A stretch of 18,473 bases of DNA from Sulfurimonadaceae bacterium (GCA_041562555.1 JBFEXS010000033.1:1-18473), one strand, 5' to 3'; positions 594-18,473 are shown, counted from the stretch's first letter. Notes: generated by a model not told the origin, from the sequence alone. Made by a program: numbers and translations.

Positions 594-617
594 CTTTTCA
601 CCTTGTAATGGTGACTA

Positions 618-1499
618 CTACTTAACCCCGTGGGCTTGAATTTGTAGTCCCTGTTTAATATTCTTTAGACTATACAGATCCGCTATTTTTATATAAACTG
701 TATCTTCAGGAAGCTCCAACTTGATCTTACTTGTTTTACGATCACGTTTGTATACTTTTAATAATCGAAGCTCTTTGTCATAAATTGAGACATAAGGATA
801 CCAATTATTTCCTTTCAAAGACCATACAGTGACTGCATTTGTTGATTTTACATTCACCCAATGTTCATAAAGTGACTTTTTAAGCACTCTCTCTTTATAT
901 GGACGTAACTCGTCCAGCATCAAATAGGCCTTTTTTATATCGATATGATAGGACCATTCTGTCTTGGTATGACGGTCAATATCAACAATACTGCATCCGC
1001 GTTTTTGTAGAGCCGCCTTAAGTAATACGGGATCGATTGCATACTCTCCTGTCAGTCGTATCGTCCAAAAGAACCCACTTTCATCCTGCTTGGACTGTTC
1101 TGTTATAAAACGATAATATCCCATCGACTGAAGGGTATCGCTCATGATCTTTACGAAAAACAAAGGATATCCGCTGGACTGAAAGGTCAGATGCATCTCT
1201 TGAGGTTTTTTAAAGAACAGATCCAGCAGACCATTATCCTTTAAGGTCTGTATGACCTTGGCGACATCCACACGTTCATTGGTATAGTACTCTTCCTTGT
1301 CTGCAAAAATGATCTTGATGAACTTGCTGTGTCTCGCATAGGCCTTTTCACCGATCAGAGCCTTGATCTTTTCTTCCAAAAGATCAACATTCTGAATCAC
1401 AGTCGTATTATCATCTCCGGAACCAGGTTCCAGAATATAGGTCTCGGCATACAGTGCACTAAAACTAAGGAGTAAACATAGAAAGAGCGGTCTTACCAA
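618..1499 (-). CDS. Conserved Campylobacterota periplasmic protein of unknown function (Cj0151c-like position)
   Basis: 293-aa ORF with Sec signal peptide (MVRPLFLCLLLSFSALYA); overlaps the upstream gene's stop by 7 nt; syntenic position. Confidence 0.75.
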   Translation of the reverse strand: MVRPLFLCLLLSFSALYAETYILEPGSGDDNTTVIQNVDLLEEKIKALIGEKAYARHSKFIKIIFADKEEYYTNERVDVAKVIQTLKDNGLLDLFFKKPQEMHLTFQSSGYPLFFVKIMSDTLQSMGYYRFITEQSKQDESGFFWTIRLTGEYAIDPVLLKAALQKRGCSIVDIDRHTKTEWSYHIDIKKAYLMLDELRPYKERVLKKSLYEHWVNVKSTNAVTVWSLKGNNWYPYVSIYDKELRLLKVYKRDRKTSKIKLELPEDTVYIKIADLYSLKNIKQGLQIQAHGVK

Positions 1500-2290
1500 G
1501 CTTTACCCCGATTCTTCTCTTTAAACTGTGAACGGGTCAACTTGCTTAAGGTCCCGTTTTCATATGCAAACCAGACCTTGTTCTCATCTGTGAACTTATG
1601 CTCCACCTCATTGACTTCAAAGTTCACGTATCCATGGCCCATGACCAGAAGCCACTCTTTATCCGCATCCAGTTCAAAGGGTTCAGAACTCAAACGTTGT
1701 GAACGCTTAAATGTCTCAAGATCAACAATTCCGATCCAAAGTTTACTACGCGGTATAATCTCGAATTTTGTCGTATGTACCGGTTCAACACTCGCTGCTG
1801 ATTGAAGTTCCTTGGTCTCAATAGTGGTATTCCCAAGGTGTGTCAACGTAGCCTTCGCTTCCTCTATGGTCGTATTGTTCAGTTCCTGTTCAACCTTTGC
1901 TTCAGGTGTTTTCTCGATCTTGGGTTCTTCAACTTTTTCTTCCTCTGAAGGGTTAAAGACAAGAAAAACAAGACCGACTATAAGTAAACCGATAACAATA
2001 TACAGGCCTTTGCTATTGCTCTTTCCTTCTGTCTTCGTCTGCTCACTGATAACAAAAGGCTCATCTTCGTTACTATTCGAATTGTTATGAAAAAGGTTAT
2101 ATGCCTCGATAAGGGCATGGAGGTCTACATTATATTCGCGTTCCAGGATAGAGATAAAACCTGAAAACTGGATCTTGTTCATCCTAGAAAAATCTTCTCT
2201 TAATATATCTTCAACAAACTTTTTAGCGATATGAGTCTGTTCATAAATCTTATGGGCTCCAATCTCTTGGAGTTTATCTAAACCTGTCAT
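1493..2290 (-). CDS. Single-pass membrane protein with RodZ-like architecture (Cj0152c-like position)
   Basis: N-terminal HTH-like segment (IYEQTHIAKKFVEDILREDFSRMNKIQFSGFISIL), one TM helix (LYIVIGLLIVGLVFLVF), E/K/P-rich linker, C-terminal beta domain (KLWIGIVD); ATGA overlap with rlmB. Confidence 0.65.
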   Translation of the reverse strand: MTGLDKLQEIGAHKIYEQTHIAKKFVEDILREDFSRMNKIQFSGFISILEREYNVDLHALIEAYNLFHNNSNSNEDEPFVISEQTKTEGKSNSKGLYIVIGLLIVGLVFLVFNPSEEEKVEEPKIEKTPEAKVEQELNNTTIEEAKATLTHLGNTTIETKELQSAASVEPVHTTKFEIIPRSKLWIGIVDLETFKRSQRLSSEPFELDADKEWLLVMGHGYVNFEVNEVEHKFTDENKVWFAYENGTLSKLTRSQFKEKNRGKAW

Positions 2291-2967
2291 TCCCTCATCC
2301 TATCCATCAAAATTGCACCTGCCACACTCACATTCAAAGAATCAAAATCATTTTTCATCTCGATTGAGACAGTCACATCAAGTTTCTTCAATGCTCTTGT
2401 CGGTATCCCCTGTGCCTCATTACCCATGATCAATGCACGTTTACCTTCACACTTTACCTGGCGAATATCTTTGCCATCCATGCTTGCACCATAAAGCTTA
2501 TAGCCATCTAGTTTTAACTCATTCATCACGTCATACAAGTTTTGCGCATGGACAATCGGCATATCATATGCTGCCCCTGCACTGCTTCGCACGACATTAT
2601 CTGCTGAAAACTGTTTGATACCACTCACGATCACCGCGTCTATACCAAGGGCGTATGCTGAGCGGATGATCGCTCCCATATTCCCCATATCGGTAATTCC
2701 CGCTAAAACTACAACAAACTGTGCCTTACCGAGATCTTTAAGATCATGCAGCACTAGGTCATCCACCTCAGCTAAAAAACCTTGGTGATTCCCTGACTTA
2801 CTCATGGACTGAGCAGCGTTTGAAGGAATTCGTTTCAGTTCAAAATCCATACGCATAAGACGCGAATACTCTTTTTTATCAAGCTCTTTTGAGACATACA
2901 GTGTCTTAATCTTGTGCGGATGTTTTTCTATCAGGTAATATACCGGTTGTTTTCCATAAATAATCAT
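2287..2967 (-). CDS. rlmB: 23S rRNA (G2251-2'-O)-methyltransferase RlmB, SpoU/TrmH family
   Basis: MIIYGKQPV start, HQGFLA, ITDMGNMGAIIRSA, MGNEAQG and DSLNVSVAGAIL SPOUT motifs; start moved to ATG at 2967. Confidence 0.93.
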   Translation of the reverse strand: MIIYGKQPVYYLIEKHPHKIKTLYVSKELDKKEYSRLMRMDFELKRIPSNAAQSMSKSGNHQGFLAEVDDLVLHDLKDLGKAQFVVVLAGITDMGNMGAIIRSAYALGIDAVIVSGIKQFSADNVVRSSAGAAYDMPIVHAQNLYDVMNELKLDGYKLYGASMDGKDIRQVKCEGKRALIMGNEAQGIPTRALKKLDVTVSIEMKNDFDSLNVSVAGAILMDRMRE

Positions 2968-2974
2968 GGCAAAG

Positions 2975-2984
2975 AGTTTAGCCA
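2975..2984 (-). promoter_or_regulatory. Putative sigma70 -10 box (tggcTAAACT), 7 nt before the rlmB ATG; implies a leaderless transcript
   Basis: Minus strand reads tggc-TAAACT-ctttgcc-ATG with no Shine-Dalgarno sequence. Confidence 0.5.
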
Positions 2985-3124
2985 AAACTGTCTTAAGTAT
3001 ATGACATAAAGGTAAAAATTTAGAAAACAGGAAAAGAGAAGATCCATTTTTTTTGAAGATGTTACCTATGGTATAGTTTTAAGTTATACGTACTATACAT
3101 AAGGTTTATGTTTGTTTTTTATTG

Positions 3125-3940
3125 TTATTTCATATCCATCAATCGTTGATAACAATGCTTCGTATTTTCACCAGTGATCTTGGATATAAGTTTGGCTGCA
3201 GACTTTTTCGGAAGATCAAGCTCAAGGACATCCTTTTCACTGATTGAACTCTCTCGCGCTTGGGAAGCTTCTATGACAACTACCCATTCTCCCTTGATAG
3301 TTGCCTGCGAAAGTTCGTTCAAGACGCCTTTTGCATTACCATGATAATAAGATTGGTATTTTTTCGTCAGTTCCTTAGCGCAGAACACTCTTCTATCAGG
3401 GGCCTCACTATCAAGCTCTTTTAAAAGTTTTTCCAATCTGTGAGGTGCTTCATAAAGAATCGTCGTAAAGCCATTATGTAAGGCACCTTGCAAAGCCTTG
3501 GCACGCTCTTTCCCCTTGTGGGGCAAAAAACCGAAAAAAAGCATTTGGGTATTGACAAATCCACTGGCGACAAAGGCTGTAAGCAATGCATTAGCCCCCG
3601 GTAAAATATCATATGCTATCTTCTCCTCCTGACAATATTTGACCAAAAGCTGTCCCGGATCAGATATGCCCGGCATGCCTGCGTCAGAGACATACACGAC
3701 ATCCGCCTCAAAAAATGACGGGGTAATCTTGTCTATGAAGGCTTGTTCATTATGGGAATGTAAAGAGATAAACTCCTGTTCTTTGCGTTCGAGGTTATAT
3801 CGTTCCTGAAGGATATGTAGCAATTTTTTCGTTACACGGGTGTCTTCACAAAGCAGTATATCTGCATTCATCAAGCTGTCCATTGCTCTTAGTGATATAT
3901 CAGCAATATTTCCGATCGGAGTTGGAACAAGGGTTAACAT
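3125..3940 (-). CDS. rsmI: 16S rRNA (C1402-2'-O)-methyltransferase RsmI
   Basis: LVPTPIGNIADIS, CEDTRVT, VSDAGMPGISDPG, YEAPHRL, KELTKKY and KGEWVVV motifs. Confidence 0.96.
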   Translation of the reverse strand: MLTLVPTPIGNIADISLRAMDSLMNADILLCEDTRVTKKLLHILQERYNLERKEQEFISLHSHNEQAFIDKITPSFFEADVVYVSDAGMPGISDPGQLLVKYCQEEKIAYDILPGANALLTAFVASGFVNTQMLFFGFLPHKGKERAKALQGALHNGFTTILYEAPHRLEKLLKELDSEAPDRRVFCAKELTKKYQSYYHGNAKGVLNELSQATIKGEWVVVIEASQARESSISEKDVLELDLPKKSAAKLISKITGENTKHCYQRLMDMK

Positions 3941-3971
3941 ATTTAAGTCTTAAGATTGTTTTTGAAGAGAG

Positions 3972-4014
3972 AAAAAAATGTGAGTTGACAGCATAAATGC
4001 CATCAAACACTCAC
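3972..4014 (-). terminator. Rho-independent terminator after rpmE
   Basis: Minus strand: GTGAG-tgt-TTGATGGCA-ttta-TGCTGTCAA-CTCAC followed by aTTTTTTT. Confidence 0.75.
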
Positions 4015-4214
4015 TAGTCCATGTTGTAACGTTTTTTGAACTTGTCAATACGTCCAGCAGTATCTACCATACGCTCAGAACCAGTAAAGAATGGGTGACA
4101 CTCATTACAGATCTCAACTTTGATCTCGCTCTTTACACTTTTTGTGTCAAATGTGTTACCACATGCACAACTTACTTTACAATCAACAACGTCTGGGTGA
4201 AGATCTTTTTTCAT
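4014..4214 (-). CDS. rpmE: 50S ribosomal protein L31 (Zn-binding type A)
   Basis: MKKDLHP...SCACGN...[12 protein letters not shown]...[13 protein letters not shown], 66 aa; AAGGA RBS before ATG at 4214. Confidence 0.98.
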
Positions 4215-4301
4215 CTTGGGTATCCTTAGGTGCCACGCTGTGTACGTGATCACGGTATATTTTTTTAAAATCCGTACGGGTGCAGATTTATTGTGAACGG
4301 C

Positions 4302-4309
4302 ATTATAGC
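4302..4309 (-). promoter_or_regulatory. Putative -10 box (gcTATAAT) of rpmE
   Basis: Perfect TATAAT about 88 nt upstream of the start, preceded by AT-rich sequence. Confidence 0.6.
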
Positions 4310-4361
4310 GGAGTTTATCTTATTTTTCAATGAAGCTCATAATTATGCTCCTGTACTGTCA

Positions 4362-4910
4362 CTATATTGACAATAGATACAAGCATCCCATTCCTAATAA
4401 ACAAAGGATCATTCCACCTACAATTAAAGTTTTATGATGTTCAACTCTCCTAGGTGACAAAGATATATCAATATAAGCTTCCGTAGGTTTTTTTGGATTG
4501 TAAAAGCCTGTTTTACACTGTTCAACTGTTTTCTTAAGATAAACCTCTGCTTCTTCTAACTTGCGGAACATAAAACTATCTATATCCATTGCAAAAGAAC
4601 CAAACCGCTCCTTTCCTTGCAAAGTAAACTTAAAATCAACTACAGGGTAAAAATAGATTACAGGCAGCCCCTCATCTGGTACTATCTTTTTAACAATATC
4701 TGTCTTCGTAATTACAATATCGACAACTTTCCAGACTTTCTCATTGTGACTCTTTTTTAACGAGAACCAATTTACGGTTATCAGCCAACATCCAAATCCA
4801 AACAAAACTATCGGAGCATAATTTATGGACAAGTAAAGTGGTAATAACATCAGCACCCCTACAAGTGCAGACATTATAAGCTCATCACTTGCCGAATGAT
4901 CAACAAGCAT
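4362..4910 (-). CDS. DUF3592-like membrane protein
   Basis: Two N-terminal TM segments, then W-x-x-V-x-x-x-I, YPVVDFKFTLQGKE, FYNPKKPTEAYI, and a C-terminal TM; pattern recalled from DUF3592. Confidence 0.6.
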   Translation of the reverse strand: MLVDHSASDELIMSALVGVLMLLPLYLSINYAPIVLFGFGCWLITVNWFSLKKSHNEKVWKVVDIVITKTDIVKKIVPDEGLPVIYFYPVVDFKFTLQGKERFGSFAMDIDSFMFRKLEEAEVYLKKTVEQCKTGFYNPKKPTEAYIDISLSPRRVEHHKTLIVGGMILCLLGMGCLYLLSI

Positions 4911-4931
4911 TTTAGTTAATTACTTTCATTA

Positions 4932-5603
4932 TCAAATAAGTATCTTAGAGGCAATCGCCATCGCTGCTGATTCGGAACGCAAGATCATCGGCGTGTCCAA
5001 TCGAAAACGTCTCATCTTTTCCAGCTTCCGGCGTTCTTCATCTGAAAAACCGCCTTCACAGCCTATAAGCACCGTTTGAATATCATCATCACATCCCAAA
5101 ACTTCATCACAAAAATCGAGGACCATCGTCTCAGGGTTTTTGTCTAAAAAGGTATCTAGGTTCACATAGGTCTCAAAGGAGATCGGCTCGCTTCGCCCAC
5201 ACTGTTGTGAAGAGGTTTCCAAGATACGTTCATATCGCTTTAGATCCGTTTTGAAGTTCTTTTGGCTTCGAGCACAATAAATAAAGGATATCTTATCCAC
5301 GCCTATCTCATTAAGACTCGGCAGGACTTTTTCAACAGACTTTGGATCGATCACGCACCAGCCGATATGGAGCTTCTTTTGGGGTAAGAGCACTTTTTCT
5401 TCTGACGCCACAAGCTCCAGGACTGCCGAACGTCCATCAAGACTGATGACCTTATAGGTATACAGATATTCACTTTGTACACGAGAGCGAAAATAGAGAA
5501 GGTCATCTACATTGTGGCGGCGCACTTTAAAGAGGTACTTATACTCTTCACCCTTAAGTTTTAAACTGCTTTTTCCCGCCTCGTCATTAAAAAGAAACTG
5601 CAC
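4932..5603 (-). CDS. rsmE: 16S rRNA (U1498-N3)-methyltransferase RsmE
   Basis: YLFKVRR, LNEIGV, SSQQCGR, IGCEGGFS and ILRSESA motifs; probable GTG start at 5603 (MQFLF). Confidence 0.93.
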   Translation of the reverse strand: MQFLFNDEAGKSSLKLKGEEYKYLFKVRRHNVDDLLYFRSRVQSEYLYTYKVISLDGRSAVLELVASEEKVLLPQKKLHIGWCVIDPKSVEKVLPSLNEIGVDKISFIYCARSQKNFKTDLKRYERILETSSQQCGRSEPISFETYVNLDTFLDKNPETMVLDFCDEVLGCDDDIQTVLIGCEGGFSDEERRKLEKMRRFRLDTPMILRSESAAMAIASKILI

Positions 5604-6012
5604 CGGCCATCCCTGCGAACGCACTCACTCCTACTATCAGTAAAAGCTCGGCAAGTTGATATCTAAATCCAAGTTTTTTATAATGTTCATGGGACATCAT
5701 CTTGAAACGGATCACCCGGGCAAGAGCTTTGTTTCGTTTGATCTCCAAGGCTGCGATAATAAAGAATGACACAATCATCAGTAAATTGGCCGGAGTAAAA
5801 CTCAGATGCTTTGCCGCCATCATGATCGCACCTGTTAAAACGATGAATCCGACCAAACTGAGATGAAAGACCATCAGGACCTTTATCCATTTGACAAACT
5901 TCTGAAAATCGCCATTGACCTTATGCATCGCTATCATGACAAGCAAGAGAAAAAGCAGCCCGATCACAGAATAGATATGGATACTCTGACTCATTTCATA
6001 CATTTCATTCAT
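5587..6012 (-). CDS. Four-TM integral membrane protein of unknown function (Cj0157c-like position)
   Basis: 141 aa with four hydrophobic segments; GAGG RBS; overlaps the rsmE start. Confidence 0.75.
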   Translation of the reverse strand: MNEMYEMSQSIHIYSVIGLLFLLLVMIAMHKVNGDFQKFVKWIKVLMVFHLSLVGFIVLTGAIMMAAKHLSFTPANLLMIVSFFIIAALEIKRNKALARVIRFKMMSHEHYKKLGFRYQLAELLLIVGVSAFAGMAGAVSF

Positions 6013-6069: not shown

Positions 6070-7614
6070 TTATGTCTTATAGATATTAAGTTCCTTATTA
6101 AGCTGTTGTGTATTCTCCACAAGATTATCAATGTTATCGACAATCTCCTGAATATTGGAAAAGCTTTCTGTTGTCAATGATTCGACATCATGAATGGTAT
6201 GAACCAACTTCTCAAGCTTCGTAATATTATCACTAAACTGTTCTGCCGAGTTTTCTGAAATTGAAGCTGTCTCATCCATAATCCCGATTGTCTCATGCAA
6301 GCTGGACCGGACTTCCAGAGAATCTGAACTTAAATAGGTGATGTTCTCGGCATTACTTGTCATCTTGTCACTTGTATCATTGATCGCCTGCACAACGATA
6401 TTGACCGTACCATGGATCTCATTAAGGGATTTTTGCGTTCGCTCTGCCAGTTTTCTAACCTCATCCGCGACTACCGCAAACCCCCGTCCGTGTTCACCTG
6501 CACGAGCAGCTTCAATGGCTGCATTAAGCGCCAACAGATTCGTTTGATCTGCGATCTCTGAGATAACCGTCAAGATGTTTTTGATCTCTTCAGCCGATTG
6601 GGTCAACTCATTAAGTTTCTCAGACATCTCATTCTCTATCTCAGCCGTCTGTTCTATACTCTGTGTAAACTTTGTAATCCGCTCACCTATATTTTGCAAG
6701 TTGGTGTTTGCCTCATCGATGCGTTCTTTGGCATAGGAGGTGTTTTGGTTTGTCTGACGGAGTTCTTCTTGCATGGTACCGCTGGCCTGTGTGATCTTTG
6801 AAATAGCCGATTGCTGATCAGCAGAACTTTTACGCAAAGCATTTGTGATCGTATGCACTTTCTGCGTAATTGCAGTCGTCTCGTGGGCAGACCCTTTCGC
6901 TGTATTTAAAACCTTTCTCAAGGTTGAGACAAATGAATGGAACGCAGCTTCCTGTACATTTTCTGCTTTGATATCCAGCGTGAAATCATGGCTTTTTGTC
7001 ATCTCATTCACATTATCTATAATATGCATTGAGCTAAGATACTGTCCTGTCATAACATATACCATGTAGATAAGCACTGCCGCCTCCATAACTACAAAAG
7101 AAGCATGTAAAAAGGCGATATCCCAACCGCAGGCATAGTTGAATATCATTATCTGCATCTCTCCGATCGAGGCACCGTTTAACTGCAGATACGTAAAGAG
7201 CAGATGATGAACGGCGATCGTCAACGCACTCACTATCACGGGCATAGCATCCTTATATAAGGACATAAACGCAAGGACGACAAAGATGTGAAAATGCATC
7301 TCAATACGCCCTAGATGTTGCTGTATCATTATGATCGGGAATCCCATAATCAAAACTCCGATCAAAATACGAGAGAGTGAAGTACCGGGAAAAAACTTAT
7401 ACAGAAAAAAAGCTACCCCGGTCAACATACCGCCGCCTACAGCTCCCAAGAAATACGTATTGTAGGTCAAAGAGGTCACAGCACTGACGATAATCCAATT
7501 GATGACAAAAATATACATAAACATCTTATCTGCATTTTTGGCTTCTTTCAAAAGATTCTCTTTTATTAAACTTGAAAGTCCCTCATAATTCCCAGCTAAT
7601 ACCTTTGCGTTCAT
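6070..7614 (-). CDS. Methyl-accepting chemotaxis protein with a multi-TM (about 6) intramembrane sensor domain
   Basis: Signalling hairpin [41 protein letters not shown]-terminal TM bundle containing EMHFHIF, AVHHL and FLHA; AAAGGA RBS before ATG 7614. Confidence 0.92.
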
Positions 7615-7835
7615 GTATTGTCCTTTGTTCAATGATGGCTCTGTCTCATGCATAGAACATGGGATCTACGAGCACCTTTTCTGATTAATGGTACACATAA
7701 AAGAATAGGATAAAGCTTAGAAAAATAAATTAGGTTTTGTATATACGGACACCCTTCTGGAGAACATGTAGAAACAATTGAATTTACATTCATACTTTTA
7801 CTAGCTTTAAAAGTTAAGTTTTACCCTTCTTGGCC

Positions 7836-9671: not shown

Positions 9672-10430
9672 CTAAACCCCTTTATTTTGATCCCAGAGAC
9701 GAATATGCAAACGATCGCTATACACATATCCTTTACGTTTACAGTACTCGATGACTGCTTCACTGTGATCTTCCAACTCGGTCTTACTTCCACCTTTTGG
9801 CATACAATAGACTGAAATGGATGGTGCGAACTTTATGATATTGCCGATCTCATCATCAACACCGGATCCCAATGAAAACCTGTCCACAGTGAACTTGAAG
9901 AAAGCATCCTGTGAATAGGTCGCAATATTTTGGATTGCCTCCGCATTGATACGTCTGTTCTCAGGTTCACCGCTGTTGCTGAGTTTTACTGAAAGAGCAA
10001 AGGTACAGCGCTGATATACACGGTGCTTTTCAAAGTCGACGTTTATCGCACCGTTTGTCTCGAAAGTGACCTTATGGCCTTTGCCCTGTAAAAATTCTAT
10101 AAAAGAGACAAAAAGGTCATCATTGGCATAGATCAGGGGTTCTCCGCCGGTCAGTACGATATCAGCCTTTATCGGCAGTGTATAGGAATGATAGATATCA
10201 ATAAGCTGTTGCAAGGCTTCGATTTCCGTCCAGGTATCACCAAAGTGTTTCTTATCGACAGCATATACCGTGTCACATCCCATGACCTTGACACCGCTTG
10301 GAGAGACTTCAGAACATCCAAAGCCCTCACATTTCATATTACATCCGCCAAAACGAAAAAACAGAGATGGTGTGCCTAAATACTTTCCTTCGCCCTGGAT
10401 GGAGTAGAAATGTTCAACCAAATAGATCAT
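9672..10430 (-). CDS. queE: 7-carboxy-7-deazaguanine synthase QueE (radical SAM)
   Basis: EHFYSIQGEG, FFRFGGCNMKC...CDT, LTGGEP, ETNG, SVKL and RLH motifs; TGATG coupling to moaA. Confidence 0.93.
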   Translation of the reverse strand: MIYLVEHFYSIQGEGKYLGTPSLFFRFGGCNMKCEGFGCSEVSPSGVKVMGCDTVYAVDKKHFGDTWTEIEALQQLIDIYHSYTLPIKADIVLTGGEPLIYANDDLFVSFIEFLQGKGHKVTFETNGAINVDFEKHRVYQRCTFALSVKLSNSGEPENRRINAEAIQNIATYSQDAFFKFTVDRFSLGSGVDDEIGNIIKFAPSISVYCMPKGGSKTELEDHSEAVIEYCKRKGYVYSDRLHIRLWDQNKGV

Positions 10431-11395
10431 CAACCGCCCGTTTCGTAAAATGCGCGTGTGGAAGCTTCACCATCCGATTCTGACCAACGGTTCTTTTCCG
10501 GTTTGGTACGAATGACCTCTTTAAGTACAAGAGCAGCTTCTTGCACATCACCACGCTTGATCGCATCATGGATACTCATTGCTTCATCAAAATAAAGACA
10601 AGGAATAAGATGCCCCTCAGCGGTAAGACGGATACGATTACACTTTGTACAGAAATCGTCTTTATATGGCTCGATTATCCCAAAACGGTATCCATCTTCG
10701 CAACGGTAATAGTGTGATGGAGAAGTCGCATCAAATCCCTCATCGGTGAACGTGTAACGTTCGCCGATCAGTTTCAAAAGTGCTTCACTCTTCATACCCT
10801 TGATATCGACTTCGGCATGTACGTTTTCCATGTATTCGATATAACGTACAGTGATGTCACGTTCCTTACAATACTCCATCACATCCAGGACCTCATTCTC
10901 GTTCAATCCGACCATCGGGACCATATTGACCTTGACTTTCAGACCTACATGCAGTGCTTCATTCAGACCTGCAAGTACATTTTTCAACACATCTTTTTTA
11001 GCGATCTTTTCTGCCACTTCCGGAATAAGACTGTCAATAGAGATATTGATGCGTTTCAGACCGGCATCTTTAAGTCGTTGCGCATAACCTTTTAATAAAA
11101 AGGCATTTGTCGTCATTGCCAAGTCGATTTCAGGACAATAATCATAGATCATCTTGATGAACTTGTCCAAATCTTCACGTAGCAGTGGCTCTCCGCCCGT
11201 AATACGTATCTTTCTAATACCCTCGTCAATAGCTACCTTCATAAACAAGAACAGCTCTTCAAATTTAAGCAGGTTCTCTTTTGGCACCCATGAAAACGGT
11301 TTCTCCGGCATACAGTATTGGCATCTGAAGTTACATCGTTCTGTAACAGAAACACGCAGATAATCCACTGTACGTCCATAACTATCAACTAGCAT
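10430..11395 (-). CDS. moaA: GTP 3',8-cyclase MoaA
   Basis: [46 protein letters not shown]-terminal GG; AGGG RBS before ATG 11395. Confidence 0.98.
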
Positions 11396-11503
11396 ACAAT
11401 TCCCTAAATGGTTTAATCGTGCAAGATTAACCAAAATATTTATAGGGTCTTATTATATCTGTAATTATGTTTGATTTTTATAAGTCCTTTAAGGGCAAAC
11501 GCG

Positions 11504-11531: not shown

Positions 11532-12371
11532 TCACTCTTGATGATCCAACATTGCCACCAAAGCCCCATAGACCTTGAGTACATTACTGATAGCCGCTGT
11601 CCCCTGATTGAAGTAGGTATTGGTGTCAAGTTCTATATGGTCTTGGTCAACAACGCGATTCAGAGTCAACTCCGTATAGGTATGCAGGCTTTCATTGATC
11701 ATTTGCAATTCACTTTTTTCAAGAGATGCAGGAACCTCCAGTCTAAGATAAGACTCCAACATCATTCTGTACTGTTCTATCTTTCTGGCAAATTGCTGCA
11801 TCTTCGGTGATTCTTGCTTTTTGCAATAACTCCGCGCAACGATCCCTGATCCCATGCCTCGCATCTTACCGATGTTTTCCGTCAATGGCAAAAGTACGTT
11901 GTTCAAAGTAGAGACCATTTTATATCTCTTGGCATCACTGGCAGAGAAATGTGTATCAATGACCCTCTTATTAAAGCTTATCCATCCTTCGATGATATCT
12001 GAGTAACTGGCAAACACCTGTGCCGAGTCCTCTTTAAATGCCCGTCGATTCAGCAGTTCCGTCTTGTTGATAAGAACAGCAGACATCTCTTTGAGCTCAG
12101 GCTTCAAACTGCTTGAAGCAATATTCTTTTCTACTTCCTGAAAGTTTTTAAGCATATTTTGACGCTGACCATAGACCAATAACTGCGCCACTACATTTCC
12201 ATTCATGTAGTTGTTCGTCAAACCGCGTGTCTTCTGTGTCGTGATCACGACATCCTTGATCGAATGCACTAATTCCAAATACGGTTTATCCTCTTGAGCT
12301 TGCGAAAATGGAAAAGCAAAAGCCATCCCTTCTAATACAATCAACCCTACTAAAAATATAATCCTCAACAT
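11532..12371 (-). CDS. Stand-alone secreted nitrate/nitrite-sensing (NIT) domain protein
   Basis: 279 aa from ATG 12371 (AGGGA RBS); signal peptide MLRIIFLVGLIVLEGMAFA; two helical halves with QKTRG and ENIGKMRGMG, resembling the NIT motifs Q-x-ERG and E-x-x-G-x-ERA; YF-x3-T-x2-I tail. Confidence 0.7.
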   Translation of the reverse strand: MLRIIFLVGLIVLEGMAFAFPFSQAQEDKPYLELVHSIKDVVITTQKTRGLTNNYMNGNVVAQLLVYGQRQNMLKNFQEVEKNIASSSLKPELKEMSAVLINKTELLNRRAFKEDSAQVFASYSDIIEGWISFNKRVIDTHFSASDAKRYKMVSTLNNVLLPLTENIGKMRGMGSGIVARSYCKKQESPKMQQFARKIEQYRMMLESYLRLEVPASLEKSELQMINESLHTYTELTLNRVVDQDHIELDTNTYFNQGTAAISNVLKVYGALVAMLDHQE

Positions 12372-12542
12372 ATTTTCCCTTTTCCCTGATTCATCTATAA
12401 ACACCTCGGTATTCATAGATAAATGTACATGTCCTGAGACATGTACTAGGTTTGAGAATTTATGCCGTAATACTGTACGGCAGGAGAACGTGAGCATTAG
12501 GGACTTACCTACTTTCCACAGCGAAGTAGCGCCCCAGGCTCT

Positions 12543-13334
12543 CTATTCATCCTCTTTGGCAAATTTCTCATACAAGAAACTAAGAATTGCTTCACGACAT
12601 CGGATATATTCCGGATCATGCTGCAAGGCAACCCGGTCCCTTGGACGATCCAGATTGACCTCAAGGATCTCTCCGATCGTCGCTTCAGGACCATTGGTCA
12701 TCATGATAACCCTGTCACTCAACAAGACCGCCTCATCAATATCATGGGTGATGATGATGACGGTATTTTTAACATTCTGCTGGATACGCATCAGGTGCTC
12801 CTGCAGATTTGCTCTTGTCAATGAATCCAGTGCACCAAAAGGTTCATCCATCAACAATACCTTCGGCTTGATAGACAAGGCACGCGCAATACCAACACGC
12901 TGCTTCATACCGCCACTGATCTCACCCGGATATTTATCCTTGGCATGATCAAGGTTTACCATCTCTATAAACTTGTAAACACGTTCCTTAAGCTCTTTTG
13001 GGCTCAACTCCGGCATTACCTTCTTGACCGCCATCTCGATGTTTTGATAGACCGTTAACCAAGGCAGTAGAGAGTGATTCTGAAACACCACTGCTCTCTC
13101 CGGTCCGGGTCCTGTGATCTCCTTGTTGTCAAGGATAATGCCACCGCCCGTGGCCATGTCCAATCCGGCGATCATATTCAACAGTGTTGACTTACCGCAT
13201 CCCGAGTGACCGATGATCGAGATGATCTCGTTCTCTCTGATATTCAAGTTGACATCCGTAACCGCCACATACTCTTTTCCCTTTGGTAAAGGAAATACTT
13301 TTTCTACGCCTTCTAAGTCTAAAAACTTGCTCAT
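12543..13334 (-). CDS. nrtD: Nitrate/nitrite/cyanate-type ABC transporter ATP-binding subunit (NrtD/NasD/CynD type)
   Basis: GHSGCGKST, PGPERAVVFQNHSLLPWLTV, ISGGMKQRVGIARAL, MDEPFGALD and MMTNGPEATIGE motifs; GGAGG RBS. Confidence 0.9.
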   Translation of the reverse strand: MSKFLDLEGVEKVFPLPKGKEYVAVTDVNLNIRENEIISIIGHSGCGKSTLLNMIAGLDMATGGGIILDNKEITGPGPERAVVFQNHSLLPWLTVYQNIEMAVKKVMPELSPKELKERVYKFIEMVNLDHAKDKYPGEISGGMKQRVGIARALSIKPKVLLMDEPFGALDSLTRANLQEHLMRIQQNVKNTVIIITHDIDEAVLLSDRVIMMTNGPEATIGEILEVNLDRPRDRVALQHDPEYIRCREAILSFLYEKFAKEDE

Positions 13335-13343
13335 AATTTCCTC

Positions 13344-14153
13344 CTATCGTCTTTTCGTATAATCAAAGTAGTCTGCAATAAATCCCATCATCGTATCAAG
13401 GATGTATCCAACGATACCGACGATGATAATCCCGATGATGATATTCGGATAGTTCAGGTTATTGTACTCATCCCAGATCCAAAAACCGATACCGATACCA
13501 CCGGTCAACATCTCAGCTGCGACGATAACCAACCACGCGATCCCCAAAGAGAGACGCATCCCCGTAAAGATGTACGGGACAGCTACCGGTAGAATGATCT
13601 GCGTCACCTTTTCCAAAGCAGTAAAGCGCAGTACCTTTGCGACGTTCAGATAATCCTCATTCACACTCTTCACACCCAAAGCCGTATTGATAATGATCGG
13701 CCAGATCGACGTGATAAAGATCGTGGAGATCGCCGTTGCATTGATGTCTTGAAAGACCATCAATAACAGTGGAAGCCACGCCAAAGGCGATACCGGCTTC
13801 AAGATCTGAATATACGGGTTCAACGCCGACATAAAGTTCTGTGACATACCGATCAAAAGCCCCACCGGGATACCGATAGCAATTGCCAAGGCGAATCCGG
13901 CAAATACACGTTCAAGCGAGTTAAGTACCTGCCAGAACAGACCCTTGTCATCCTCATTTTCAACATAAAATGGATCCGACAATGATCCATAAACCTCATC
14001 TCCTTCCGAATTAATACCTCCAAATGCTGCAACATAGGTATCCGATGGAGTCGGCAACTCATCTACTAATGTTGCTATCCCTGACCATGCCGGTAATAAT
14101 ATAAATAAAACCAACAGTGGAAATATAATTTTCTTAACGCTCTCAAAACTCAA
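13344..14153 (-). CDS. nrtB: Nitrate/nitrite-type ABC transporter permease (NrtB/NasE/CynB type)
   Basis: DPFY...DKGL.WQVLNSLERV, KPVSPLAWLP, WPIIINTALGV and WLVIVAAEMLTGGIGIGFWIWDE motifs; TTG start with AAGGAG RBS. Confidence 0.9.
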   Translation of the reverse strand: MSFESVKKIIFPLLVLFILLPAWSGIATLVDELPTPSDTYVAAFGGINSEGDEVYGSLSDPFYVENEDDKGLFWQVLNSLERVFAGFALAIAIGIPVGLLIGMSQNFMSALNPYIQILKPVSPLAWLPLLLMVFQDINATAISTIFITSIWPIIINTALGVKSVNEDYLNVAKVLRFTALEKVTQIILPVAVPYIFTGMRLSLGIAWLVIVAAEMLTGGIGIGFWIWDEYNNLNYPNIIIGIIIVGIVGYILDTMMGFIADYFDYTKRR

Positions 14154-14299
14154 TTTTTTCTCCTTATTGTAATGCTCAAGTAAAGTCCGTTCATCGACTT
14201 TCTTCTTTCATCTGTTCTCCACACAGATATAAAAACATCCACATGTCCTTATATCTATCCAGACTTACCATCGGATTTTCCGATAGTAAGGTGTGTTCT

Positions 14300-15691
14300 C
14301 TATTTTGTTACGAATTTCGGATCCGCACATCCTGCTGGACCATAGGGACATACATATGCAGGCTGTTCTGTTTTTACTGTCCACTTGTTCGCCGCTGCAA
14401 GCTCCTCTTTAGATACTTTTGGACTAGTTACTTTGAAGTCGAAGATATAATCAACCGCTTTGTTTGGATCCCATACTTTTTTATCCATGAACATGTTGTA
14501 TTTATCTACACCGTCCTTTTTCCAAGCACTTGGCGGAAGGCTGTACCCAACTTCTTTCGCTGCGACTTCAAACAGGTCCGGACGATATGTCTTTTCGATC
14601 ACCTCTTTCATGTTTACCGGTTTGTCAAGCTGACCCCATCTGTACATCTGTGTGATGAACCACATACCGTGTGAATAAAACGGGTACGCTGCATAATAGT
14701 TAGCAAACACGTTAAACTGTGGATTAGCCTCAGAGTCCTGACCTTTTAGGTACTGGAATGTCCCTGTCATTGATTTTTCAAGAACCGATACCGGTGCCTT
14801 TACGTAATTCGGTTTTGAAAGGATCTGTGCCGCTTCTTTACGGTTTTCCCATGAAGCATCCAACCACATCTGAGCTTCAATGACTGCTTTCATGACTGCT
14901 TTGGTCGTTTCCGGATTTTTCTCCACGAAATCTGCACGAGCTTGAAGCACTTTTTCCGGGTTGTTGTTCCAGATATCAAAGTTCGTTACTAGAGTAGAAC
15001 CCTTCTTCTTAAGTACGATACGTTCATTCCACGGTTCACCAACACAATACCCTTCGATATTTCCTGCAATCAAGTTAGATGGCATTGTTGGTGGTGGGAA
15101 AGGTTTGATCGTTGCATCACGATCCGGCTCGATACCGGACGTCGCCATCCAATAACGTAACTCATAGTTGTGTGTTGATACCGGGTGTACCATACCGAAG
15201 TTCAATGGCTGATATTTTTCACCCTCCGATGCATGTTTTGCGTCAATATACTTTTTAAGGGACTCTGAACCCAGTGGACGTGCTTTCTTATCCATCCCGT
15301 ACTTTTCCATCTTGCTGATGATGTTGTTACCGAAAGTGATCCCGTTTCCATTGAAGTCAAGACTTAATAGGGCTTGCAGGTTTGCATTACCGTTGATTCC
15401 CAATGTTGCCGCAATCGGCATCCCTGCTAACGCATGTGAAAAATCATACTCCCCATTAATCACTTTTTGCTGGATACCGGGCCATCCGCCACCTTCTTTT
15501 ACTACGTGTACATCCAGACCATACTTATCAAAGAAACCTTTCTCCTCTGCGATTACCAAAGGTGCACAATCTGTCAAGGCAATAAATCCGATTGTCAACT
15601 CTTTTTTCTCTAATTCTGCCATCAATGTACTTGCGACAAGTGACATCCCTAATCCAATTTTCAAAGCTTGTTTCGCTAATGGAAATTTCAT
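14300..15691 (-). CDS. nrtA: CmpA/NrtA-family ABC substrate-binding protein (nitrate/nitrite/cyanate type)
   Basis: IGFIALTDCAPLVIA, HPVSTHNYELRYW, PPP.M, GYCVGEPWN, NPEKV and WFITQMYRWG motifs; Sec signal peptide; AAGGAG RBS. Confidence 0.9.
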   Translation of the reverse strand: MKFPLAKQALKIGLGMSLVASTLMAELEKKELTIGFIALTDCAPLVIAEEKGFFDKYGLDVHVVKEGGGWPGIQQKVINGEYDFSHALAGMPIAATLGINGNANLQALLSLDFNGNGITFGNNIISKMEKYGMDKKARPLGSESLKKYIDAKHASEGEKYQPLNFGMVHPVSTHNYELRYWMATSGIEPDRDATIKPFPPPTMPSNLIAGNIEGYCVGEPWNERIVLKKKGSTLVTNFDIWNNNPEKVLQARADFVEKNPETTKAVMKAVIEAQMWLDASWENRKEAAQILSKPNYVKAPVSVLEKSMTGTFQYLKGQDSEANPQFNVFANYYAAYPFYSHGMWFITQMYRWGQLDKPVNMKEVIEKTYRPDLFEVAAKEVGYSLPPSAWKKDGVDKYNMFMDKKVWDPNKAVDYIFDFKVTSPKVSKEELAAANKWTVKTEQPAYVCPYGPAGCADPKFVTK

Positions 15692-15719
15692 TTTCTACTC
15701 TCCTTTTTTTGTTGATACC

Positions 15720-15773
15720 ATTTTACAGGAATGAAATATTTTTTGTTCACTTTGATGATTATTTTTTAATCAT
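15720..15773 (-). promoter_or_regulatory. nrtA promoter: -10 TAAAAT (15725-15720) plus upstream palindrome ATGATTA-N5-TAATCAT (15755-15773)
   Basis: Perfect 7-5-7 inverted repeat with the same core and spacing as the porin promoter. Confidence 0.65.
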
Positions 15774-15866
15774 TTTATGATTTTATTTAATACACATAAA
15801 CATATAAAAATACGTCATTTAAAAACCAAAAGAAAATTAAAGTGCCTGATCGAGATAGATGAGAAG

Positions 15867-15913
15867 AAAAAAAAGGGGGAATGACCGCCTAAGCGGTCTA
15901 AAAGGGGGAGGGT
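15867..15913 (-). terminator. Terminator-like 3' end of the porin gene
   Basis: GACCGC-ttag-GCGGTC hairpin, then attccccc and T8; the hairpin is flanked by direct repeats of TCCCCCTTTT. Confidence 0.65.
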
Positions 15914-17188
15914 TTAGTTAGAAAACTTGTAATCTAACATTACCCACGCTTTTTGCGTATCAGTACTAAAATCATCTGCTGAATAATCAGCATATTTGAG
16001 CATACCTGTCAAGCCCTTGACACCAGGGATAGTTCTTTTGTAGATAAGGTTAAGTTCCGTACCGTAATCCAGGCTTCCAGCATCTGAAGTGTAATCATGA
16101 TAGATCGCTTTTGCAACACCAAACTCTTTACTCTTGTATCCTACCATCAGGTTAGCATCAACAAGACCTGTTGTTGGAGTAATCAAAAACTTATCTGCCC
16201 AACCGTTGAATTTATGTTTCGTTGCCAGTGGTGTCTGGAAACCTGCATTGCTGCCATTTAGTCCGCCGGTCTCGCCAGCTCCAAGTACCTCGTAATTAAC
16301 ACCGGCAAGAATACCGCTTAGATTAACACCAAGATCTATATTGTAGTATTCAGAATCGCGGTCAGCTTTTCCAAAACTTTTCATCTCAAGTGAAGCATCT
16401 GTCTGCATCGCATACTCGGCACGGTAAGTGATCCCTACATCACCTGCTTTAGTCTTACCTGTCAGTGCTACACCGTAAGTATCGGAGATTGAACCCAGCA
16501 TATAAGAGTAAGCAGTAACCGTTAGCGCGTCTGCGACTTTATAAGAAGCATTTACCAGTGCCGAAGTCGTTGCACCTGAACCCGTACCACCTGCTGCGAT
16601 AATCGCATCCGTTGTTCTATTGATACCATAATAGATACCCTGCTCTCCGTTTCCATCATCACCGATAGCATTAACACCATAGACATATGCACCAAAAACA
16701 CTTAGACCGGCATCTTTATAACTAACTGATGCTAAATCAAGTGTTTGAAAACTTTGTTTCCAGCCAACTGAACCGATAAAACGTTGGTTATCCAGGTTTG
16801 TTGTACTTCTACCCACTGTAAAACTTGTTGCACCCGTAGAGTACTGAACCTTAGCCTGTGTCATTTTAGCCAGTTCTTTCTCAGCTGCAAGATCCTTCCC
16901 GTGTTGATCCAGTGTATTGAAATCATTAACCGAGTTAAGCTCTATTGTACCTGTTAATCCATCAACCTCCAATAGCTTTGCACTAAAGTTAAGATTTGTT
17001 CGATTTGTAAACGTGCTTCCAGAACTTGCCGCTGTACCTGCATGGTCAGTAAACTGATACCTTGGGCGTAACTCACCCTTGAATTTTATATCATCAAAAA
17101 TAGATAGACCATCTTCAGCTTGTGCTGAAACAGTACCCACACTCATCATTACGGCAGCAGCCAAAGACATTTTCATTACGTTTTTCAT
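15914..17188 (-). CDS. Outer-membrane beta-barrel porin (alginate-export/AlgE-like family), probable anion channel
   Basis: Signal peptide ending AQA; GELRPRY, LDNQRFIGSVGW.Q..QTLD, EYA.Q, FQTPLATKHKFNGWADKF, DYGTELNL motifs; terminal aromatic strand WVMLDYKF; AGGAG RBS before ATG 17188. Confidence 0.8.
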   Translation of the reverse strand: MKNVMKMSLAAAVMMSVGTVSAQAEDGLSIFDDIKFKGELRPRYQFTDHAGTAASSGSTFTNRTNLNFSAKLLEVDGLTGTIELNSVNDFNTLDQHGKDLAAEKELAKMTQAKVQYSTGATSFTVGRSTTNLDNQRFIGSVGWKQSFQTLDLASVSYKDAGLSVFGAYVYGVNAIGDDGNGEQGIYYGINRTTDAIIAAGGTGSGATTSALVNASYKVADALTVTAYSYMLGSISDTYGVALTGKTKAGDVGITYRAEYAMQTDASLEMKSFGKADRDSEYYNIDLGVNLSGILAGVNYEVLGAGETGGLNGSNAGFQTPLATKHKFNGWADKFLITPTTGLVDANLMVGYKSKEFGVAKAIYHDYTSDAGSLDYGTELNLIYKRTIPGVKGLTGMLKYADYSADDFSTDTQKAWVMLDYKFSN

Positions 17189-17214
17189 TTTTTCTCCTAA
17201 TAAATGTTGGCACA

Positions 17215-17271
17215 AGTATATCAGGCCATGAACATTATAAATACAAATTTGTGATTAATTTTTAATCACAA
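17215..17271 (-). promoter_or_regulatory. Porin promoter: extended -10 TGaTATACT (17223-17215) plus palindrome TTGTGATTA-N5-TAATCACAA (17249-17271)
   Basis: Perfect 9-5-9 inverted repeat; TGn extended -10 located 26 nt before the ATG. Confidence 0.65.
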
Positions 17272-17343: not shown

Positions 17344-17631
17344 CTATCTCTGTTTCATCAGACCCTCTCCCATACGTTCTTCAATATCTGCTTGATGTTT
17401 GGCCATCTCAGCACGAATGATATCCATGACATAGGGTGGGACATTCTCATCCTTATACCAATTGACCGAATCGATATGCCCGCCATAATCACTCCCCAAG
17501 TCTTCTACCTTTTGGGCATACTCATCCATATCCCTGCATATTTCAACACGCATATCAACCATGTCCTTAAGTTCGATGAACCAGGTATCATCGTCTGCCA
17601 TTTTGATGGTAGATGTAAAAACGACACTCAT
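17344..17631 (-). CDS. Small acidic cytoplasmic hypothetical protein, apparently the last gene of the nap operon
   Basis: 95 aa, D/E-rich, no signal peptide or TM; starts 3 nt after the napD stop (TAG-AGG-ATG). Confidence 0.75.
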   Translation of the reverse strand: MSVVFTSTIKMADDDTWFIELKDMVDMRVEICRDMDEYAQKVEDLGSDYGGHIDSVNWYKDENVPPYVMDIIRAEMAKHQADIEERMGEGLMKQR

Positions 17632-17634
17632 CCT

Positions 17635-18018
17635 CTATCCTAACCGCTGCTTATCATCAGCAAAGGCATTTAAATCTTTTTTCTTTAAGTCTCCATTATA
17701 TACTATGTCTTTAGCCTCAATGGAATCATCGTTAAGCATCTTTGGAACAACATCCGCATTATTGAGGACTTCCATATTTGCATCAAGTTCATCTTCACTA
17801 TAGGCCATCTGCATATCTGCAGTGATCACATGGGGAATTGCCTCAATGATACGTAGTTTTGCCAATTCCTCCTTCACACCCTCACCTTCAATGGTTATAA
17901 TCACTCTTCCCTTATCATCATGCATGTGATAATCACAGGCCTCACACATCTTTAGATCGCGAACGACCTGGTCTATATACTTGGGTACGGTTTGAACGAC
18001 TATGCTCGAAATATTCAT
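17635..18018 (-). CDS. napD: NapA signal-peptide chaperone NapD
   Basis: MNISSIVVQT, DKGRVIITIEG and I..IPHVITADMQMAY motifs; AAGGAG RBS before ATG 18018; C-terminal extension; follows napL. Confidence 0.92.
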   Translation of the reverse strand: MNISSIVVQTVPKYIDQVVRDLKMCEACDYHMHDDKGRVIITIEGEGVKEELAKLRIIEAIPHVITADMQMAYSEDELDANMEVLNNADVVPKMLNDDSIEAKDIVYNGDLKKKDLNAFADDKQRLG

Positions 18019-18076
18019 ATGATTCTCCTTATCTTCACTAGATGTCTGGTTTATTATACGCTGTTTATTTTTTATA

Positions 18077-18473
18077 TCACTTGACCTGGAACAAGTTGAT
18101 CTCTCTGGAGTCACTCGCTACCAAGATCTCCTTTTCATTTAAAAAATGTATCTGGGTAATCAACATCTTACTGCCTTCAAGGTCTGCAATACTCTGTCTA
18201 CTTAAAGTATCAAACACCCTGACATGGTTATCTTCATCCGAGGCGTATGCCCCCAATGCCCCGCTTGGAGACAAACCTGCACTATAGACCAAAAAAGGAG
18301 ATGCAATATAATAGGCATCTCCTTCTGGCATTCGATAGACAACAACCCGTCTGTCCTGTCCTGCAGTGATGATCCTATTGTTTTTATAATCGACCTGAAA
18401 CACGTTATCAAGGTTCTGTCCGCTCAAAGTCTTAAGCAAAATTCCCCTCCTGCTGTCATATACCTTCAAATCA
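18077..18473 (-). CDS. napL: WD40/beta-propeller protein NapL, 3' part only
   Basis: WD-like repeats (NLDNVFQVDY, TAGQDRRV, FLVYSAGLSPSG, LVASD); immediately upstream of napD, as in Campylobacterota napAGHB(F)LD operons. Confidence 0.8.
   Translation of the reverse strand, partial: DLKVYDSRRGILLKTLSGQNLDNVFQVDYKNNRIITAGQDRRVVVYRMPEGDAYYIASPFLVYSAGLSPSGALGAYASDEDNHVRVFDTLSRQSIADLEGSKMLITQIHFLNEKEILVASDSREINLFQVK

Follow-up and report, generated by a model that had tools for sequence, protein, structure and literature searches.

A probable nitrogen-regulated path for nitrate and nitrite uptake behind the nap operon of a Sulfurimonadaceae bacterium

Does a nitrate-type ABC importer encoded directly behind a nap operon serve Nap, or does it serve nitrogen assimilation? 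The question is raised by an 18,473-nucleotide stretch of DNA from a Sulfurimonadaceae bacterium (GCA_041562555.1, JBFEXS010000033.1:1-18473; hereafter the window), in which genes for a beta-barrel porin, NrtA-, NrtB- and NrtD-like subunits and a secreted NIT protein lie between napD and moaA. The window is the entire 18.5-kb contig C33 of a metagenome-assembled genome (MAG) of 137 contigs and 2.1 Mb, 89% complete and 4.3% contaminated. An original prediction, made from the sequence of the window, had read the five genes as a nitrate/nitrite capture system attached to the nap operon. We put at roughly 70% the probability that the region instead serves assimilation, as a path of high-affinity nitrate/nitrite uptake under nitrogen regulation, with an importer that appears to be of an ordinary, known kind (assimilatory nitrate/nitrite import of the NasFED type), though unusually placed.

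In such a path, an 18-strand porin of the AlgE/Occ type would pass nitrate, and probably nitrite, across the outer membrane, periplasmic NrtA would capture the substrate in a nitrate-type pocket, and a NasFED-like ABC importer, composed as NrtB2-NrtD2 and lacking NrtC, would carry it to the cytoplasm, to be reduced to ammonium by a NasA-like molybdoenzyme and a ferredoxin-nitrite reductase that are encoded on other contigs. The porin gene and nrtABD would belong to a nitrogen-assimilation regulon and would probably be transcribed separately from nap, and the secreted NIT protein, a variable accessory, would most likely bind nitrate or nitrite in the periplasm and signal through a partner.

The presence of five co-oriented genes between napD and moaA was confirmed by a listing of open reading frames (ORFs) and by family scans, with one correction: a sixth gene, orf95, sits between napD and the porin gene and belongs to nap. 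The nap, uptake and moaA genes are all on the minus strand, in the order napL (3' part), napD, orf95, porin, NrtA, NrtB, NrtD, NIT, moaA, and the uptake part holds the following features.

17252-17268, no strand: 17-bp palindromic operator of the TGATTAA-N3-TTAATCA type, upstream of the porin gene and about 15 bp before a TATAAT box
15914-17215, minus strand: porin ORF, likely start 17188 (424 residues); PF13372 at 21.9 bits, cut-off 25.2; Sec signal peptide
15867-15898, minus strand: GC-rich hairpin with a run of eight U, 16 nt past the porin stop; -11.7 kcal/mol, z -4.3
15756-15772, no strand: second operator copy, 1 mismatch; nrtA starts 65 bp downstream
14300-15691, minus strand: NrtA/NasF-type periplasmic substrate-binding protein; PF13379 (NMT1_2), E 1e-82; signal peptide, no lipobox Cys
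13344-14153, minus strand: NrtB/NasE-type permease; TIGR01183 at 244.9 bits, cut-off 209
12543-13334, minus strand: NrtD/NasD-type ATPase, 263 residues; TIGR01184 at 352 bits, cut-off 291.8
12425-12446, minus strand: inverted repeat separating nrtD from the NIT gene, arms of 9 bp without mismatch, loop of 4 nt; -13.4 kcal/mol, z -3.2
11532-12497, minus strand: NIT protein ORF, 321 residues, likely start 12371 (M43; 279 residues); PF08376 at 32.0 bits, cut-off 24.9

What does the importer carry? NrtB and NrtD score above the curated thresholds of TIGR01183 and TIGR01184, the models for nitrate ABC transporters, and NrtA matches the solved NrtA 2g29 (E 6e-62) better than the bicarbonate-binding CmpA 2i48 (E 3e-51); CmpA is also outscored by the C-terminal domains of NrtC and CmpC, which bind nitrate. 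For the C-terminal regulatory domain (CRD) of CmpC, an excerpt of PMC13287603 gives Trp319, His408, Gly452 and Lys481 as the nitrate contacts, and equates Lys481 with Lys269 of NrtA and Lys480 of NrtC, where CmpA has Glu. In the HMMER alignment to 8wm7/9uai, these positions become W70, H169, G218 and K247 of the window NrtA, and the same residues are conserved among homologues from related loci (W 26/26, G 27/27, K 27/27, H 20/27). This supports a pocket predicted to be of the nitrate/nitrite type and not of the bicarbonate type, and with the four pocket residues present, the substrate class originally proposed for the importer is supported. We also considered a CmpABCD-like bicarbonate importer for an autotroph, given that CmpA belongs to the NrtA family (the 2i48 match above). 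Bicarbonate is disfavored because Lys247 occupies the position where CmpA has its bicarbonate-specifying Glu; in addition, the NrtA match scores higher, the gene context is one of nitrate assimilation, and the operator is common to amtB (see below). This reading, which we judge extremely improbable, was rejected on the Lys/Glu position.

Compared with NasFED of Klebsiella oxytoca and the cyanobacterial NrtABCD, the window system has the same components, i.e., an NMT1_2/NrtA-fold binding protein with the W/H/G/K pocket, a TIGR01183 permease and a TIGR01184 ATPase, and its orthologues in relatives likewise sit in nas/nir clusters. Unlike NrtABCD, it comes without the NrtC subunit that bears a nitrate-binding C-terminal regulatory domain: NrtD is the sole ATPase of the system and has no NrtC-like C-terminal domain, and nrtC was found neither in the window nor in 27 related loci, which carry nrtABD only. 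In this respect, the importer resembles NasFED. The differences from both systems concern its surroundings: the window importer lies beside nap and molybdenum cofactor (Moco) genes, apart from its reductases; a dedicated porin precedes it; and in place of NasR or NasS/NasT there is a palindromic operator common to amtB.

This operator bears on the process that the genes serve. The 17-bp palindrome occurs in the gap before the porin gene and in that before nrtA, and the genome contains 8 sites at ≤2 mismatches; the 139 control palindromes matched for composition occur 1.4 times on average and never more than 6 times. Half of them (4/8) are upstream of the porin gene, nrtA, amtB-glnK-amt, and the divergent narK and FeS/DmsC-NasA-like pair, and none was found at ≤2 mismatches on contig C3, which carries the nap genes. 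The copy 67 bp upstream of amtB-glnK-amt is perfect (C47 11219-14428), and the association was seen in 5/5 other family genomes tested. Among relatives, 73 loci (1.19 Mb) yielded 25 sites, 20 of them within 400 bp upstream of narK (8), nrtA (7), a gene for a 293-residue membrane protein here called TM293 (4), porin genes (3), FNT-cynS or nasA. The three operator-bearing porin genes are all nas-linked or from this genus, whose loci retain the operator before both the porin gene and nrtA, and no operator was found at that stringency before nap-linked porin genes outside the genus. Among the loci with a copy upstream of TM293 are L036, L037 and L084; in L077, a copy stands upstream of the cynS-FNT pair. 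Finally, in five further family genomes the pattern was found 3-5 times each, compared to 0-1 for a reversed control, and 7 of the 15 sites fetched from them lie at amtB/glnK/amt, narK or the FeS/DmsC gene.

Since the operator also precedes amtB-glnK and narK, and not napA, its distribution points to control by nitrogen assimilation as opposed to Nap respiration. The porin gene and nrtABD are thus probably co-regulated through the common palindrome, and we infer a nitrogen-assimilation regulon that includes both. The stable hairpin and U-run behind the porin stop suggest separate porin and nrtABD transcripts; this hairpin is terminator-like with an atypical spacing. The repeat at 12425-12446 could be terminator-like or an operator and lies in the discarded leader of the long NIT ORF. 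Of the co-regulated module in the original prediction, what stands is a porin gene and nrtABD under the same palindrome; a constant five-gene unit and the tie to nap do not, and with the operator shared by amtB-glnK and narK and absent at napA, attachment of the capture system to the nap operon is not supported. The opposite reading, in which the five genes form a capture module coupled to Nap, the porin feeding Nap, the NIT protein buffering periplasmic nitrate and NrtABD mainly importing Nap-made nitrite for assimilation or storage, has to contend with the same distribution, i.e., an operator that is common to amtB-glnK and narK and that nap was not found to have. In favor of such a module counts that nitrite is also a substrate of the cyanobacterial NrtABCD. 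Import of Nap-made nitrite by NrtABD is in itself possible; we found nothing that points to it specifically.

If the importer serves assimilation, where are the reductases? Neither a nitrate or nitrite reductase nor a cyanase, an NrtC-type fusion or an ANTAR regulator was found among the 22 ORFs scanned in the window, as the original prediction had stated. For the reductases and the cyanase this absence does not extend to the genome. Contig C64 encodes a NasC/NasA-like molybdenum enzyme without a signal peptide and its partner, an iron-sulfur (FeS)/DmsC-anchor fusion, divergent from narK; contig C72 encodes a ferredoxin-nitrite-reductase-like protein (NirA), its gene cut by the contig start; and on contig C128 a gene for an FNT channel adjoins that for cyanase (CynS). 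The C64 pair (592-6010, locus L019) comprises a molybdoenzyme of 765 residues and a fused 4Fe-4S/DmsC membrane-anchor protein of 522 residues, which together may form a quinol-linked cytoplasmic assimilatory nitrate reductase. The NasA-like enzyme scores below the NCBIfam cut-offs, as do the molybdenum enzymes of the relatives' loci, which score best to formate dehydrogenase alpha (Fdh-alpha) and NasC/NasA models yet remain under the cut-offs, and no canonical NasA orthologue was found in this 89%-complete MAG. This last result fits a Nap-coupled module, against which stand the NasA-like enzyme and NarK, both encoded in this genome and in the 5/5 genus relatives tested. In these relatives, the NasA-like enzyme (67-91% identity) and NirA (59-91% identity) were each found in 5/5. 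Contrary to what had been supposed, the importer is therefore not orphaned from assimilation: its reductase genes, with those for NarK and FNT-CynS, lie on other contigs, a situation repeated in the 5/5 genus relatives.

The same link can be followed across the class. In a survey of 400 other sampled class genomes, NrtA homologues (50-88% identity) were detected in 18, and all 18 loci carry nrtABD. A NasA/NasC-like molybdenum enzyme, its FeS/DmsC partner or nirA lies within ~9 kb in 16 of these 18 loci outside the genus, and cysG (beside nirA), narK and FNT-cynS are also present in several of them. The connection of the importer to assimilatory reductase genes, absent in the window, is thus present in 16/18 orthologous loci, with the genes elsewhere in the genome in our organism. 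In L029, L031 and L038, nirA, the FeS/DmsC gene and the molybdenum enzyme gene form one string beside nrtABD. A fusion of a PP2C phosphatase and a Ser/Thr kinase (547-595 residues) recurs in the nitrate-assimilation clusters of several genera (L025 12588-14231; L031 12287-13933; L033 7043-8725; L077 10815-12602; C64 7429-9075).

The cyanase genes raise another possibility, namely that the main role of the ABC system is CynABD-like import of cyanate to feed cyanase, possibly with nitrite as a further substrate. The FNT-cynS pair (C128 1891-3289, L017) was also seen in four relatives (L021, L022, L028 and L077). That cynS stands beside an FNT channel gene in this genome, that in L077 cynS-FNT lies between the NIT gene and moaA and carries the operator, and that FNT-cynS also occurs in the nas clusters of L021, L022 and L028 would all agree with cyanate import. 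However, the direct neighbors of nrtABD in most relatives are the NasA-like gene and nirA and not cynS; at the four residues compared, the pocket is identical to that of nitrate binders; and cynS has an adjacent FNT channel of its own. We therefore regard a cyanate importer as improbable, and retain uptake of nitrate and nitrite for assimilation.

How far does the position next to nap matter? Among 16 other genomes of the genus, 9 contain NrtA (90-98% identity) and 4 a NIT homologue. The porin gene is directly upstream of nrtA in 7/7 other genus loci that show this side, and napD-orf95 precedes it in three of the seven (L073, L077 and L096). The resulting order, nap-orf95-porin-nrtABD in three other MAGs of the genus, is what a Nap-coupled module would produce, as is the nap linkage of the porin family in 11/20 surveyed loci (see below). 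Against it, in L095, L097 and L100 the sequence ahead of porin-nrtA lacks napD and orf95 for 1 kb or more (L098 falls in neither group), the NIT gene is missing from 5/9 of the slots described next, and outside the genus 7/9 family genomes with a NIT gene have no NrtA match. Taken together with the operator, we consider a Nap-coupled module unlikely, and the assimilatory path remains the preferred reading.

On the other side of the importer, moaA is downstream in every genus locus whose contig reaches that far, and the Moco/queuosine block that it opens is syntenic in relatives and forms the downstream border of a variable slot between nrtD and moaA. This slot holds the NIT gene alone in the window, L073 and L099, TM293 in C129 and L098, and TM293, NIT, a PP2C-kinase gene, cynS and FNT in L077; it is empty in L094, L096 and L097. 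Overall, the NIT gene is present in 4/9 slots, with the window and C129 counted. Among the 18 NrtA-bearing species outside the genus, nap or NIT genes were found within ~9 kb in none, and a porin homologue directly after nrtD in four (L021, L022, L033 and L036). The original prediction expected the five genes to co-occur in other genomes; the survey run for this purpose showed that outside this lineage they do not (4/18 with porin, 0/18 with NIT or nap). Five genes as one conserved module were ruled out by these neighborhood surveys in and outside the genus, and the position after the nap operon is a lineage-specific synteny. Because L053 and L054, from another Sulfurimonadaceae genus, have the porin gene directly before the block that in the window extends from moaA to an aminotransferase gene at the window's start, with no nrtABD between, nrtABD (sometimes with accessory genes) was seemingly inserted between a resident porin gene and moaA. 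TM293, found in the slot instead of or together with NIT, has a soluble N-terminal part followed by about four C-terminal membrane helices and no Pfam match (293 residues; C129 1858-2739, locus L009, also L036, L037, L077, L084 and L098); an atlas gives a lead to PDC-like sensor domains.

Is the porin itself tied to nitrate? The structural model has 18 beta-strands (pLDDT 86, pTM 0.84) and matches the barrels of Occ/OprD, AlgE and the major outer membrane protein (MOMP) of Campylobacter (TM 0.62-0.70; Foldseek E 1e-15 to 1e-12 against Occ/AlgE chains). Like AlgE/OccK/OprD (5dl8, 4frx, 3rbh) and the Campylobacter MOMP (5ldt), the window protein is thus modeled as a monomeric 18-strand barrel. 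It differs from the solved AlgE/Occ/MOMP members in sequence (10-16% identity), and its family differs from AlgE/Occ in a nap/nas/nrt context, as opposed to alginate or carboxylate catabolism. Many homologues (45-75% identity) carry precomputed PF13372 and/or PF03573. Arg41, Arg43 and Arg63 are invariant and form a basic cluster on the first strands of the porin family.

The family was detected in 30/400 class genomes and in 18/34 genomes of the bacterium's own family. We evaluated its context from the best match locus per genome in 20 genomes: 11 adjoin nap, 3 adjoin narK/nirA/nasA, 2 precede moaA, and 4 show none of these (one on a 6-kb contig). Of the 11 nap-adjoining porin genes, seven are downstream of napD/orf95; the other four diverge from napA, and in two of these the gap measures 1.4-1.9 kb. 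A random gene would be expected to show a very different context, though the relatives are not independent, and the proposed tie of the porin to nitrate is supported by the class-wide linkage of its family to nitrate genes. Members linked to nap and members linked to nas interleave in a maximum-likelihood tree of 34 porins, in which a midpoint root serves drawing only, and genome G254 has near-identical porin copies, one behind nap and one behind nrtABD. The usual assumption, at least as put in an excerpt of one preprint (bioRxiv 10.1101/2025.03.29.645582), is that nitrate diffuses to Nap through general porins. No description of a nap- or nas-linked porin was found in the literature searched, which covers few subscription journals.

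What, then, does the NIT protein add? As originally described, it is a secreted protein with a NIT fold. Its start is probably M43, because a signal peptide is then present as in all homologues, and it exceeds the PF08376 cut-off (32.0 vs 24.9 bits), with homologues at 37-45 bits. The model is an eight-helix double four-helix bundle (pLDDT 91) whose sole significant match in the PDB is NasR (4akk_B; TM 0.73, E 1e-5), the next match having E 0.06. The protein ends after the NIT domain: an ANTAR, kinase, MCP or GGDEF output is lacking, as is a second membrane helix. The R-G motifs on helices 1 and 5 are invariant in the family; for NasR, the portion of PMC7496416 consulted places predicted pocket residues on helix 5 and, at an interface linked to the pocket, residues of helices 1, 5 and 6. 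The predicted likeness to the NIT domains of NasR (4akk) and of kinase and chemoreceptor sensors consists in PF08376 and the double-bundle fold and, at the level of helices, in a possible pocket correspondence; unlike these, the window protein is secreted and stand-alone, without an output domain.

In a search restricted to near-length proteins, members of the subfamily have 264-295 residues and all carry signal peptides, and every source name among the 207 matches is from Campylobacterota; NIT sensors of 700-1,060 residues also exist in the class. In this genus the context is nrtD-NIT-moaA, and in one Sulfuricurvum MAG it is TM293-porin-NIT. The closest homologues (42-54% identity), in other Campylobacterales MAGs, are encoded between moaC(-DUF493-DUF6781) and mobA, an arrangement seen in five MAG loci (L072, L074, L078, L080 and L081) near a sulfite-oxidase-type molybdenum enzyme gene, and in Sulfurimonas locus L047 the NIT gene stands beside DUF6781-DUF493-moaC. 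An adjacency of NIT genes to nitrate genes in Sulfurimonas was ruled out, with 8/9 loci among trpS, argF, hemB, ribA or similar genes. The protein is most likely a soluble periplasmic nitrate/nitrite receptor, an optional accessory that would signal via a partner; a role as a buffer is also conceivable.

Several observations weigh against the assimilatory reading. At 21.9 bits, the window porin is below the PF13372 gathering score of 25.2; its lumen-facing strand residues, in a crude strand-parity count, comprise 16 K/R and 14 D/E, i.e., no clear anion bias; and it is from gene context only that we infer selectivity for nitrate. There is no clear terminator between orf95 and the porin gene, so that read-through from nap is possible, and a functional reason for the nap adjacency in 3/7 genus loci is conceivable. 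As the source of the operator-binding regulator, an Rrf2-family gene is a candidate lead only. Such a gene lies directly upstream of nrtA in one genus (L033 8736-9161, L036 8763-9188, L037 3290-3712), and the window genome encodes Rrf2 paralogues that are only 31-37% identical (on C27 and C71). The incompleteness of the MAG and its strain mixture weaken any statement that a gene was not found, and the relatives in all surveys are non-independent samples.

The remaining features of the window concern its flanks.

18077-18472, minus strand: 3' part of napL, WD40-like, from the family scan
17635-18114, minus strand: napD; PF03927 at 70 bits, matching residues 33-108
17344-17631, minus strand: orf95, acidic, 95 residues, from the ORF listing; no family match
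10430-11434, minus strand: moaA; TIGR02666 above cut-off; first gene of the Moco/queuosine block moaA-queE-queD, followed by moeA

The napD ORF is listed from a GTG, and its real start is probably further in. Contig C3 starts with the end of napD/napL, overlapping the window's napL/napD end at 98-100%, and carries napAGHBFL, i.e., it continues the window's nap operon. According to an excerpt of PMC4584964, the order napAGHBFLD is conserved in Sulfurimonas; the arrangement here matches that of Campylobacterota, with the napL part and napD at the window edge and napAGHBFL on C3. Relative to the operon as given in that excerpt, there is in addition a conserved 95-residue gene after napD and, in many genomes, a porin gene after or divergent from nap. 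The start of orf95 overlaps the napD stop, and the gene follows napD in 11/18 other loci showing napD (45-78% identity); in Sulfurimonadaceae it is a conserved, unnamed gene at the tail of napAGHBFLD, and it does not belong to the uptake module.

Beyond moaA lie queE, queD, moeA (on the opposite strand) and then a chemoreceptor gene. The latter encodes a methyl-accepting chemotaxis protein (6070-7653, minus strand) with no Pfam match in its first 240 residues; it is kept beside moeA in L073 and L096 and is absent there in L077 and L097. Rfam returned zero families at gathering thresholds in the window, and a sigma-70 promoter scan of the window was not above shuffles (23 sites vs 18.4 +/- 4.5 expected). 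The gene order is not an assembly artefact, because it is identical in independent MAGs (L073, L077 and L096). At least two close strains are present in the MAG, with C125 and C129 duplicating window genes at about 85-94% amino acid identity. A search for sequencing runs with the window returned no RNA run and four DNA runs, all marine metagenome runs of one study; several related strains are evident among their contigs, one of which (5,178 nt) spans moaA-NIT-nrtD.

Three elements go beyond the textbook picture: a porin family linked to nap and nas, a predicted nitrogen operator tying porin and importer to amtB and narK, and a family of secreted stand-alone NIT proteins. Extending them, it is conceivable, though we hold it only tentatively, that AlgE/Occ-like porins of Campylobacterota are dedicated nitrate/nitrite channels for both Nap and assimilation, swapped between nap and nas loci and here placed with nrtABD under a nitrogen-status operator, and that secreted NIT proteins are periplasmic nitrate receptors docking on a chemoreceptor, a kinase or TM293. 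If this were true, such porins would be, to our knowledge, the first substrate-linked nitrate porin family. In marine redoxclines and vents, which sulfur-oxidizing Campylobacterota dominate, nitrate is in short supply and is both electron acceptor and nitrogen source. Nitrogen control in the phylum is little known, and the palindrome offers a testable nitrogen regulon (amtB-glnK, narK, nas-like genes, nrtABD, the porin gene and FNT-cynS). A porin traveling with nap and nas genes would, for its part, provide a specific outer-membrane entry step and could affect both nitrate affinity and isotope fractionation.

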